Source: a virus (lineage: Duplodnaviria; Heunggongvirae; Uroviricota; Caudoviricetes). Taken from it: 4,324 nucleotides of DNA. The notes beneath the pieces are model-generated. The model ran no database searches, was not told the origin of the DNA, and worked only from the letters and a program-made list of their open reading frames with translations. Where the stretch lies: positions 1 through 4,324 of IMG/VR virus record IMGVR_UViG_2534681764_000020, one strand, 5' to 3'. The stretch's first letter is position 1; each line of letters starts with the position of its first letter. Position numbers and translations under genes: made by a program. Below are positions 1 through 1,531 of the stretch, one piece after another.

Positions 1-573
1 ATGTTTTGCGAAGAAAAAGTAGCTCAAATGGCTGCATACCTACTTCTTAAGCGAGGTGGGCGCATGGCATATCTGAAATTGATGAAGTTGCTCTATCTGT
101 CTAACCGCCAGTCGATTTTGAAGCATGGCAGGATGATCGGCGAAGATAGCCTTTACTCTATGAAATTTGGACCAGTCATGTCGAATACGCTGAACTTGAT
201 TCGCGGTAAGGCTGAAGGCATTGGTGACTACTGGTACAACTTGATAGAGACGAACGGGCATAATGTATCGTTGCGTTCAGATCCGAGGGAAATGGATGCA
301 GACGAGGTCTTTGATGAATTGAGTCGTGCAGATATCCGGATTTTAGATGAAATCTATTCTCGGTATGGGCATATGAACCGATTTGATCTCGCAAATATGA
401 CGCATTTAGAAAGCGTTTGTCCAGAGTGGCACGATCCTGGCAATTCTCGTAAGCCTATAGACCTGAAAGAAATGCTGATCAGTGAGGGTAAAAGCGAGGA
501 TGAGGCTAATCGCATAATTGGCAAAATGGAAGAATCTCAGAAACTTAAGGAATTTTCTTTGCAATTATCATGA
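1..573 (+). CDS. Panacea-domain (DUF4065) protein, PanA/SocA/GepA-like putative antitoxin; N-terminus may extend beyond the window
   Basis: The 190-aa ORF contains the segment LKLMKLLYL...GEDSLYSMKFGPVMSNTLNLIRG, which matches my recollection of the conserved Panacea core (LKLQKLLY...W.YGPV). Its stop codon overlaps the start of the next ORF (ATGA at 570-573). The ATG at position 1 coincides with the window edge, so the true start is uncertain. Confidence 0.72.
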   Translation: MFCEEKVAQMAAYLLLKRGGRMAYLKLMKLLYLSNRQSILKHGRMIGEDSLYSMKFGPVMSNTLNLIRGKAEGIGDYWYNLIETNGHNVSLRSDPREMDADEVFDELSRADIRILDEIYSRYGHMNRFDLANMTHLESVCPEWHDPGNSRKPIDLKEMLISEGKSEDEANRIIGKMEESQKLKEFSLQLS

Positions 574-989
574 CGGATTATCAGCCATACAGGAAAGGAA
601 CTGTGCTTGCCCCAACTGGGCCATGCAATCATCTTCATGTGATTTGTAATGATCCTGTTTATTACCCCGTTAACGATTGTTATTGTGTTTTAGTTGTTAA
701 TATTTCTAGTATCAAGGATGGTGTCCCCCACGATCCGTCTTGCGTCTTGAATTCTGGTGATCATCGCTTTATCAAGCATCCAAGTTATGTTGTTTACGCT
801 GAAGCTATAATTTGGCGAGTGGATAACATGGTTAGAAAGCAGCGATCGGGTGAGATTTCTGTTCATGATGATATGCCAGAAGCTACATTCAATAGAATTC
901 TGGACGGTTTTGATATCTCTGATGAAGTTACGCCAAAGAACCTTAAATTTAAAAATAAATATTGCGTATCATCTATTGATGATGAGTAA
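570..989 (+). CDS. hypothetical protein, candidate cognate toxin/effector of the Panacea-domain protein; fold unrecognised
   Basis: 139-aa ORF whose ATG overlaps the upstream stop by 4 bp (ATGA), suggesting translational coupling. There is no nearby Shine-Dalgarno sequence (AAGGAA lies about 18 nt upstream). The N-terminal half is Cys/His-rich (CNHLHVIC, CYC, SC...DH). The DNA looks AT-rich relative to the neighbouring operon. No family recognised from memory. Confidence 0.55.
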   Translation: MTDYQPYRKGTVLAPTGPCNHLHVICNDPVYYPVNDCYCVLVVNISSIKDGVPHDPSCVLNSGDHRFIKHPSYVVYAEAIIWRVDNMVRKQRSGEISVHDDMPEATFNRILDGFDISDEVTPKNLKFKNKYCVSSIDDE

Positions 990-1017
990 ACAACAGGAAT
1001 TGTTTCGGTATAACTTC

Positions 1018-1022
1018 AGGAG
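1018..1022 (+). promoter_or_regulatory. Shine-Dalgarno (AGGAG) for the 57-aa ORF
   Basis: AGGAG lies 6 nt upstream of the ATG at 1029. Confidence 0.6.
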
Positions 1023-1028
1023 TTTTCT

Positions 1029-1202
1029 ATGGAAGATCAAAAAGCAACCAAGCCACAGGTTAAGTTCGACACAATGAAAGCATTCGCAGGTATGGGTGCT
1101 GCTGTTGAAGTTCTGATGAAGGCTGCTCCTAATGCGTTCACTCACGCTACTGTCTCTGGTAAAGAGCAGCAGGGTAAGCTTCGTCGTCGCAAAGCAGCAT
1201 GA
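1029..1202 (+). CDS. small hypothetical protein (57 aa), not in the supplied ORF track
   Basis: Manual translation gives MEDQKATKPQVKFDTMKAFAGMGAAVEVLMKAAPNAFTHATVSGKEQQGKLRRRKAA, ending at TGA 1200-1202. It has a good RBS and is followed within 20 nt by a strong intrinsic terminator. Codon choice (GGT, GCT, CGT, GTT, TTC, CTG, AAA) resembles highly expressed enterobacterial genes. There is a hydrophobic/amphipathic core and a basic C-terminus. Confidence 0.5.
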   Translation: MEDQKATKPQVKFDTMKAFAGMGAAVEVLMKAAPNAFTHATVSGKEQQGKLRRRKAA

Positions 1203-1221
1203 TCATAGCTGGTGCTTTTTG

Positions 1222-1250
1222 AAAACCCGCCTTTAGGCGGGTTTTTTATT
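1222..1250. terminator. Rho-independent terminator at a convergent gene junction, probably bidirectional
   Basis: Perfect 10-bp inverted repeat AAAACCCGCC / GGCGGGTTTT with a 4-nt loop (TTTA), followed by TTTTTTATTT on the plus strand. It lies immediately 3' of both the plus-strand 57-aa ORF and the minus-strand gene ending at 1250. On the minus strand the trailing U-run is weaker (GGGUUUUC then A-rich). Confidence 0.82.
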
Positions 1251-1531
1251 TAGTGATGTTCTTTGCCCTTCTGTTTGCTTGTTCTGACCTGTTCCCACTC
1301 GATACGTCCTTCTTCTCGTCTTTTGTCTATGTATTCCGCAAGATCCTGAATATTGATGCAACGTTTTGCTTTTTGTGATGTGCCGATGCGATATGTTGGA
1401 ACGGGCAACTTACAAGCGTTTGCTTTTGCTTCTGCCGTGGATGGACTCATACCAAAGTACTTTTGGCTAACTGCTGAGAGTTCAATGTTTGGGGTATTGA
1501 ATTCAGCCATCAGTAAAAACAAGGTGTTCAT
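1250..1531 (-). CDS. PrtN/excisionase-like small DNA-binding protein (putative phage Xis or regulator)
   Basis: The ORF track gives 1250..1558, but that start is GTG with no RBS. The in-frame ATG at 1531 is preceded by GGAG with a 6-nt spacer and gives 93 aa. The segment IELSAVSQKYFGMSPSTAEAKANACKLPVPTYRIGTSQKAKRCINIQDLAEYIDKRREEG resembles PrtN/AlpA-type winged-helix proteins as I recall them. It is the last gene of the operon. Starts at 1543 or 1510 remain possible. Confidence 0.5.
   Translation of the reverse strand: MNTLFLLMAEFNTPNIELSAVSQKYFGMSPSTAEAKANACKLPVPTYRIGTSQKAKRCINIQDLAEYIDKRREEGRIEWEQVRTSKQKGKEHH

Follow-up and report, generated by a model that had tools for sequence, protein, structure and literature searches.

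The hairpin at positions 1222–1245, together with the U-tract that follows it, is probably the Rho-independent terminator of a small mobile cargo module, which comprises a 178-amino-acid (178-aa) gene, a 57-aa gene, a 3′ untranslated region (3′UTR) and the terminator itself. The stretch of phage DNA analysed here (4,324 nucleotides, hereafter the window) carries the 3′ part of this module, placed between a PanA-type cargo and the convergent gene for an rdfN-type excisionase. The features on which the argument rests are as follows.

1–573, plus strand: gene of a PanA-type antitoxin (190 aa, SocA/Panacea domain; Pfam PF13274, E = 2e-19; RefSeq 'Panacea domain-containing protein')
570–989, plus strand: gene of a putative PanT-type toxin partner (139 aa; ATG at 570; phrog_19071), the second cargo gene, with the cargo ending at 1015
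1016–1247, plus strand: conserved 3′ part of the mobile two-gene module (Shine-Dalgarno site, 57-aa gene, 3′UTR and predicted terminator)
1029–1202, plus strand: gene of the 57-aa protein (phrog_2741), with AGGAG at 1018–1022 and the stop codon TGA at 1200–1202
1191–1218, plus strand: minor imperfect hairpin (AAAGCAGCA / TGGTGCTTT) that encloses the stop codon of the 57-aa open reading frame (ORF), found by inverted-repeat search
1222–1245, no strand assigned: stem-loop of the predicted terminator (arms 1222–1231 and 1236–1245), identified by folding, inverted-repeat search, terminator scan and shuffle test
1242–1251, plus strand: U-tract of the predicted plus-strand terminator, TTTTTTATTT, the last bases of which overlap the rdfN stop codon
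1250–1531, minus strand: gene of an rdfN-type excisionase (recombination directionality factor, RDF; Pfam PF11112 (PrtN/PyocinActivator), E = 6e-23; phrog_1300 'excisionase'), with its stop codon at 1250–1252

Anatomy of the hairpin between the convergent stop codons

As the initial annotation had described, a plus-strand and a minus-strand unit converge on a single hairpin, their ends about 50 bp apart: the gap from the stop codon of the 57-aa ORF to that of the PrtN-type gene is 47 nt (1203–1249). The stem is formed by perfect pairing of AAAACCCGCC (1222–1231) with GGCGGGTTTT (1236–1245) around a TTTA loop (1232–1235), and an optional eleventh pair is available between G1221 and U1246. Six of these 10–11 pairs are G·C and the other four or five are A·U or G·U; the earlier description of a single 10-bp GC-rich stem is thus right in length and in pairing, and its GC-richness applies to the G·C core alone (1226–1231/1236–1241). 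On the plus strand, the hairpin starts 19 nt past the stop codon of the 57-aa ORF and is followed by a tail in which nine of ten bases are T (1242–1251). The TTA of the minus-strand stop codon forms the distal part of this T-tract, in agreement with the overlap noted before.

The predicted folding energy is −17.3 kcal/mol for the plus strand and −16.2 kcal/mol for the minus strand (z-scores of −4.4 and −4.6, respectively), and none of 200 shuffled sequences is equally stable. No other perfect inverted repeat with a short loop reaches 10 bp anywhere in the window, and a terminator scan ranked the hairpin first. A custom terminator test, which demands a perfect stem of at least 9 bp with at least 4 G/C, a loop of 3–8 nt, and a 10-nt stretch at the stem end with no fewer than 7 T, found the site in the window and in none of 1000 dinucleotide shuffles. 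The plus strand therefore presents the stem and loop, the U-rich tract, and the position shortly after the stop codon of a real gene that characterize intrinsic terminators, and the hairpin with its T-tract is predicted to act as a Rho-independent terminator on this strand. We also considered a REP-like or otherwise dispersed repeat, which is ruled out: each genome has one copy of the 39-nt hairpin region, essentially confined to this junction.

The hairpin moves with the 57-aa gene

Homologs of the 57-aa protein, all 57–58 aa long and 67–98% identical, are present in Salmonella, Enterobacter, Atlantibacter, Franconibacter, Cronobacter and Hafnia. Between genera, the dN/dS of the ORF is 0.06–0.31, a sign of purifying selection, and because of this the ORF is a real gene. 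Within E. coli, four variable sites are synonymous versus 11 non-synonymous, so that the ORF looks unconstrained at this shallow depth; a reading of the ORF as not being a gene is ruled out by the constant-length homologs (67–91% identity) in six other genera, together with the dN/dS between them.

A comparison of 86 related loci, taken from prophage contigs and annotated genomes, showed the 57-aa ORF and an invariant stem in every one of them, with variation confined to loop position 1234 and tail position 1248. Covariation is uninformative for a stem so invariant among close loci and with a core conserved between genera; a single metagenomic copy shows what looks like a C-G to U-A change, in an alignment where MAFFT shifts some rows. 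The interval 1016–1247 is common to prophages with different upstream cargo, and to phages of other genera. Outside Escherichia and Salmonella, the 57-aa gene is always preceded by a 177–179-aa gene that is 64–72% identical to gp23 of phage mEp460. In phage contigs of Enterobacter, Franconibacter, Atlantibacter and Hafnia, this pair occupies a slot between the late antiterminator (Q/Antiterm) and holin genes, where the downstream genes are co-directional, and in one metagenomic contig a pair of the 178-aa/57-aa type is convergent with cas3.

A homologous hairpin follows the 57-aa gene in Enterobacter, Franconibacter and Atlantibacter, at a spacing of 19–20 nt, and a different hairpin is found at the same place in Hafnia. 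Except for Hafnia, the hairpins of the other genera conserve the core CCCGC/GCGGG, the 3′UTR and a long U-tract, with loops and flanking pairs that vary. Homology of the module sets in ~10 nt ahead of the 178-aa start codon, and nucleotide homology with the antiterminator-to-holin copies stops at the equivalent of window position 1247, the end of the T run. Since the hairpin is found with the 57-aa gene in other genera and homology ends at the U-tract, the hairpin belongs to the module of the 178-aa and 57-aa genes; it is the module's own predicted plus-strand terminator, and moves with it. In sum, the 57-aa gene and its putative terminator make up an independent module, one that wanders and is under purifying selection.

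A cargo slot between the attP arm and rdfN

The rdfN gene was found in 741 of 5,426 complete E. coli genomes. The slot between rdfN and the same attP arm (...GTGGGAGCCTATTGGGAACC) holds four main alleles: the PanA (190 aa) and 139-aa genes of the window (1–1015; 208 genomes), the 178-aa gene of O157:H7 and mEp460 (358 genomes), a second PanA paired with a membrane PanT (79 genomes), and a 179-aa gene with a YafO toxin (49 genomes). Three of these four are toxin–antitoxin-like, and all slot alleles lie on the plus strand, convergent on rdfN. The same layout is present in Kosakonia, Phytobacter and Salmonella. This presence/absence polymorphism, with four main alleles in one slot, bears out the suggestion that the cassette sits at a cargo-hotspot position, and makes the interval a recurrent slot for toxin–antitoxin-type cargo in prophages integrated in dusA. 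A PADLOC search of the cargo genes of every allele gave no matches. In a search for a cargo promoter, the best candidate lies upstream of the window and agrees with the consensus at 9 of 12 positions, which is no better than shuffled sequences.

The initial annotation had also located the insertion of the cassette directly at the phage operon's 3′ end, and had named alignment with related prophages lacking the cassette as the way to define its boundaries. In such an alignment with the prophages that carry the 178-aa cargo (O157:H7 and mEp460), homology is lost from window position −193 to 1015 and returns at 1016, just ahead of the Shine-Dalgarno site of the 57-aa ORF. With this correction, the PanA/toxin cargo is bounded at −193 and 1015/1016, and because homology resumes at 1016, the 57-aa ORF and the hairpin are shared backbone. 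The junction composed of the 57-aa ORF, the hairpin and the rdfN 3′ end (1016–1300) is found, behind either of two upstream cargoes, in 562 of the 741 rdfN-carrying genomes, versus the 208 with PanA cargo, and EHEC Sakai (O157:H7) carries the 178-aa allele with the same hairpin. The proposed insertion at the end of the operon is thus not upheld. The junction with the 57-aa gene is absent from the PanA/PanT allele, the YafO allele and Kosakonia, and the other cargo alleles have their own unrelated hairpins, U-rich on the plus strand in the YafO allele and on the minus strand in the PanAT allele. In these three cases, where the 57-aa gene is missing, the hairpin does not stay with rdfN.

Twelve genomes carry, in addition to the allele of the PanA and 139-aa genes, a CoiA-like gene with ~60-nt inverted-repeat flanks; this insert takes the place of precisely the hairpin's G·C core, and homology with the window ends at 1225. 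The idea that this insert is a multicopy mobile element that targets hairpins was rejected, as it occurs in only 12 genomes with one copy each (contexts were checked in L008 only).

Phage 'morons', in the sense of Hendrix and Juhala, are extra genes with their own terminator, and often a promoter, inserted between backbone genes. Like morons, the module here is present or absent among close relatives, has its own predicted terminator directly after its last gene, and is found in two slots, from the attP arm to rdfN and from the late antiterminator to holin; the PanA cargo is also slightly lower in G+C than the backbone (41% versus 46%). Unlike morons, no convincing promoter of its own was found for the module, which is moreover composite, with its 5′ gene swapped for a toxin–antitoxin pair and its 3′ gene and terminator retained.

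The dusA prophage, its integrase and rdfN

Aligned to E. coli CUPF06, the whole window matches except at two positions, 1248 and 3393; in that genome it is one extremity of a lambdoid prophage of 41.8 kb that is integrated in dusA. To the left of the window, at a distance of ~254 nt, lies a 105-nt dusA 5′ pseudogene, followed by DUF2713 and zur. At the other prophage end dusA is intact, and genes for a tyrosine integrase and DinI are located there too. A 107-nt repeat with 83% identity is common to the host dusA fragment that was displaced and the dusA 5′ end supplied by the phage. The att junctions (marked by a slash) read ...ATGCTCGA/TAGGATG on the window side and ...ATGCTCGA/CTGGACG on the int side. 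Phage mEp460 carries a matching attP, and its gene order is int (minus strand), attP, gp23 (plus strand), gp24 (plus strand; the 57-aa ORF) and an excisionase gene (minus strand), gp25 being annotated as excisionase. Prophages of this kind, integrated in dusA, are present in ~14% of complete E. coli genomes, O157:H7 among them.

The rdfN ORF, which is also open from a GTG at 1558, is the last gene of the minus-strand early operon (lambdoid early-left). A PrtN homolog was found in 64% of dusA-specific integrase islands (Farrugia 2015, PMC4482086), and was later shown to be RdfN, the excisionase of elements that 'lack xis downstream of int' (Durand 2021, PMC8409611), with RDF-dependent excision shown for the RdfN of IMEVchUSA3 (PMC8409611). 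The dusA-specific elements never have an RDF adjoining int (PMC8409611, PMC4482086), and KplE1/HK620-type prophages have int and the RDF at opposite prophage ends (PMC2951348). The prophage analysed here shows integration at the dusA 5′ end with a replacement end and a displaced fragment, and a PF11112 RDF set apart from int; judged by domain and layout, the PrtN-like gene is a member of the RdfN family, the excisionases of dusA-specific integrases.

In detail, like the dusA-specific elements (DAI integrase plus RdfN), the integrase here lies next to the restored dusA 5′ end, with the displaced host dusA fragment opposite and the att core ATGCTCGA, and, like these elements and the KplE1/HK620-type prophages, the PF11112 RDF is not adjacent to int. 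Unlike the dusA-specific elements, the RDF here ends a lambdoid early-left operon and is not AcaCD-controlled; with the tested Vibrio RdfN, a distant homolog, it shares only the domain, and its role in excision is a predicted one.

The cassette had been thought to stand where an integrase would often be found beside an Xis-like gene. A search of the flanking sequence, as proposed with that suggestion, located both the integrase gene and the attachment sites: the integrase is intact, 98% identical to mEp460 Int, and situated at the far prophage end beside the restored dusA, 36 kb from rdfN across attP, which does not support a cassette in place of the integrase. The integrase is outside the window because attP lies between int and the cargo slot, and for the same reason int ends up 36 kb away in the prophage. 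The 'missing' integrase is thus explained by the known layout of dusA-specific elements.

Strand asymmetry and a proposed role

The stem is flanked by AAAA upstream and by T6 downstream. As a result of this arrangement, the minus-strand tail (UUUUCAAAAA) contains 4 U in 10 positions (four U, then CAAAAA), versus nine in ten on the plus strand, and a terminator scan of the minus strand did not call the hairpin. A spacer of 4 nt separates the rdfN stop codon from the stem on the minus strand, and because the stem starts so close to the stop codon, a terminating ribosome should cover it. In the study of Li et al. (PMC4824070), lambda tR2 was almost fully repressed at the shortest stop-to-terminator distances tested (8–9 bp) and reached its maximum at >30 bp; at a spacing of 17–18 bp, termination efficiency was variable (0.12–0.8). 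We note that the plus-strand spacer of 19 nt falls in this range of variable efficiency, which counts against the plus-strand terminator proposed here. The homologous hairpin of Salmonella has no minus-strand U-tract, and the rdfN stop codon lies 11 nt past the plus-strand U-tract; because of this distance, the overlap of stop codon and T-tract in E. coli is not a conserved property. The initial annotation had assigned to the one stem the insulation of both transcription units. The convergent genes do share one hairpin, and the U-tract is confined to one strand; insulation in both directions is unproven because the minus strand offers 4 U and a 4-nt spacer from stop codon to stem. The sequence argues for an asymmetric terminator, favouring the plus strand over the minus strand.

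We propose the following course of events. In dusA prophages of E. coli and Salmonella, the module occupies the slot that runs from the attP arm to rdfN and is oriented towards rdfN; as a result, in E. coli the U-tract ends 2 nt short of the rdfN stop codon. In the lineage of the window, the 178-aa gene would have been exchanged for the PanA/toxin pair, and the 57-aa gene and the terminator kept. The terminator would end the cargo transcripts made in the lysogen (PanA–toxin–57-aa), and would prevent cargo transcription from continuing, in antisense, through rdfN and into the early-left operon while this is repressed. On the minus strand, the stem would serve as the 3′ hairpin of the rdfN message, and would be at best a weak terminator or a pause site, because it is followed by four U and lies 4 nt after the stop codon, under the terminating ribosome; transcripts that passed it on the minus strand would be terminated by Rho, acting on the untranslated antisense RNA. 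As a terminator, the element would be a textbook intrinsic terminator closing a phage cargo unit, and of little importance in itself.

Alternative readings of the hairpin

Symmetry and position both invite the reading of the hairpin as a true bidirectional terminator, selected to stop the cargo operon as well as the rdfN/early-left operon and to insulate both, which we regard as unlikely. The convergent pair with a single hairpin in a 47-nt gap, and the AAAA...TTTT symmetry that yields the 4-U minus-strand tail, fit bidirectional terminators, which are common in E. coli, and to this extent count against the asymmetric terminator preferred here. Such elements are prevalent between convergent E. 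coli genes, where collisions of RNA polymerase can suffice without strong intrinsic features, and a single hairpin separates the convergent stop codons in each of the cargo alleles examined. However, the minus-strand tail of only four U before CAAAAA, the expected occlusion of the stem by the ribosome and the Salmonella homolog described above all speak against it, as does the presence of the same hairpin behind the 57-aa gene in co-directional contexts of other genera. The comparison with the bidirectional intrinsic terminators of convergent E. coli genes (Ju et al. 2019, as related in bioRxiv 10.1101/2022.10.23.513370) is to the same effect: alike are the convergent pair, the single stem-loop, the short gap and the partial A/U symmetry, whereas the hairpin here has a strongly asymmetric U-tract, is inherited with one gene of the two, and also sits in non-convergent contexts elsewhere. 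An elaboration of the asymmetry, which we consider very improbable, is a leaky, ribosome-gated stop on the minus strand that would couple induction to silencing of the toxin–antitoxin operon. If this were the case, induced early-left transcription would read antisense across the 57-aa gene and the PanA/toxin operon, antitoxin synthesis would be shut off, and induction or excision would be tied to toxin release; before induction, rdfN would be shielded from cargo read-through in the lysogen by the strong plus-strand terminator. In a milder version, the attP arm and the 57-aa gene with its terminator may act as fixed homologous flanks, and the slot as a dedicated site of toxin–antitoxin or defence exchange in dusA prophages.

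The remaining two readings concern the hairpin as part of a regulatory RNA and as a trace of insertion. The 20 nt from the stop codon to the hairpin (CATAGCTGGTGCTTTTTGAA) are nearly invariant between genera, compared with a synonymous divergence of 0.5–0.8 in the adjacent ORF, and the 3′UTR segment GCTGGTGCTTTTTG is kept across genera in the alignment. The usual Hfq-binding module is a strong stem with a long U-tail. Such a stem and tail are present here, along with the second small hairpin around the stop codon, and the 3′UTR and terminator could in principle be the body of a 3′UTR-derived (Hfq-type) small RNA or another cis-regulatory RNA. We hold this to be very improbable: a search of the whole window against Rfam at permissive E-values returned sub-threshold matches only, all on the hairpin and to terminator parts of unrelated families, and the conserved UTR may merely be complementary to conserved C-terminal codons. 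It is scarcely credible that the hairpin is instead a scar, marking the insertion boundary of a PanA/toxin cassette that landed at the extreme 3′ end of the operon. The cargo does differ between related prophages, and the hairpin can be an insertion point, because the CoiA-like insert replaces its core in 12 genomes. Nevertheless, the alignment refutes a scar for the PanA cassette, the boundaries of which are at −193 and 1015/1016; the hairpin and the 57-aa gene are found in the 358 genomes with the 178-aa cargo and in mEp460, and the PanA/toxin pair of Kosakonia lies next to rdfN with a different hairpin and without the 57-aa gene.

The PanA-type antitoxin and its partner

The variable cargo begins ~193 nt upstream of the window, and the PanA gene is the first of its genes. 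The ATG of the 139-aa gene overlaps the PanA stop codon by 4 nt (ATGA, 570–573); RefSeq places its start at 603 instead of 570. The 139-aa protein matches no Pfam or PADLOC family, and does not appear in the portion of the Kurata supplement (PMC8832971) that was available. In Kosakonia, the PanA/139-aa pair directly adjoins rdfN with 82–86% amino-acid identity, and thus a Panacea protein with an adjacent partner (<100 nt) is conserved in at least two species.

These features resemble those of the PanA–PanT systems (Kurata et al. 2022), in that a Panacea-domain antitoxin is followed by an overlapping small ORF and the pair is conserved in a second genus. Unlike in PanA–PanT, the 139-aa partner in the window has no known toxin domain, and is a putative toxin. 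The E. coli PanA/PanT pair WP_000287252/WP_000019185 was validated experimentally (Kurata et al. 2022, PMC8832971), and the validated antitoxin occupies the same prophage slot as the pair of the window: in 79 genomes the slot holds WP_000287252, and the genomes examined pair it with the closely related toxin WP_000019186 or WP_021563277. The slot described here thus also houses the E. coli PanAT of Kurata et al. (PMC8832971), a pair that carries the flag 'NotPhage' in the available portion of their supplement.

The 57-aa gene and its 3′ end

Within E. coli, the variable sites of the 57-aa ORF (window 1029–1199, 86 related loci) comprise 4 synonymous and 11 non-synonymous positions, and those of the neighbouring excisionase gene rdfN comprise 18 and 10, respectively. 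Between genera, the 57-aa ORF is clearly constrained; taken together, the two comparisons suggest that selection on it was relaxed in E. coli, or that the change there is recent. The 3′UTR, GCTGGTGCTTTTTG, is near-invariant between genera despite a synonymous divergence of 0.5–0.8 in the ORF. The stop codon lies inside a second, imperfect hairpin, AAAGCAGCA / TGGTGCTTT (window 1191–1221).

The terminator hairpin

The best database match of the window, E. coli CUPF06, differs from it at two bases, 1248 (in the terminator tail; A in the window, C in CUPF06) and 3393; at 1248, related prophages show both variants. A 1.3-kb insert that encodes a CoiA-like nuclease (PF06054) and carries inverted repeats of ~60 nt on both sides occurs in 12 E. 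coli genomes, at one copy per genome. At L008 (below), the locus where its context was checked, it exactly replaces the hairpin's G·C core, and the A-run and T-run flanking the core are retained around it.

Features at related loci, each in its own coordinates
L008 3682–5045: CoiA-like insert, E. coli 13E0725 (equivalent to window 1225–1245)
L103 2901–3945; L104 2904–3948; L004 308–1352: WP_000287252 pair
L107 1150–3174; L108 1051–3174: RelA_SpoT gene with the 179-aa and 57-aa pair, Hafnia phage contigs
L121 224–4112: module convergent with cas3, contig SRR6680341_10906
L005 4053–7285: decayed dusA prophage copy, O157:H7 TW14359

The PanA cargo and its slot

The PanA stop codon overlaps the start of the 139-aa ORF in an ATGA (window 570–573), an arrangement that suggests translational coupling of the two genes; RefSeq places the second start at 603, versus 570 here. 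Because the 139-aa protein has no family in Pfam or PADLOC and matches only phrog_19071, it counts only as a putative toxin.

The slot between the attP arm and rdfN in dusA prophages also houses WP_000287252, the antitoxin of the PanA/PanT pair from E. coli that Kurata et al. validated (PMC8832971), in 79 genomes and phage PhiR47_1. The toxin beside it is a close relative of theirs. An entry in their supplementary table marks the pair 'NotPhage' (PMC8832971).

Other neighbourhoods of the module

In Hafnia phage contigs, a gene of 319–352 aa with a RelA_SpoT domain (PF04607) precedes the 179-aa and 57-aa pair, in the stretch from antiterminator to holin; it could encode a toxSAS-type toxin adjacent to the module. 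A third type of neighbourhood is found on metagenomic contig SRR6680341_10906, where cas3 is convergent with the 179-aa gene, 57-aa gene and hairpin.

The dusA prophage of O157:H7 TW14359 is a decayed remnant, in which the exonuclease, DUF2303 and tail tip genes are truncated and the methyltransferase gene has an internal stop; the 178-aa and 57-aa genes remain intact, as do the hairpin and rdfN.
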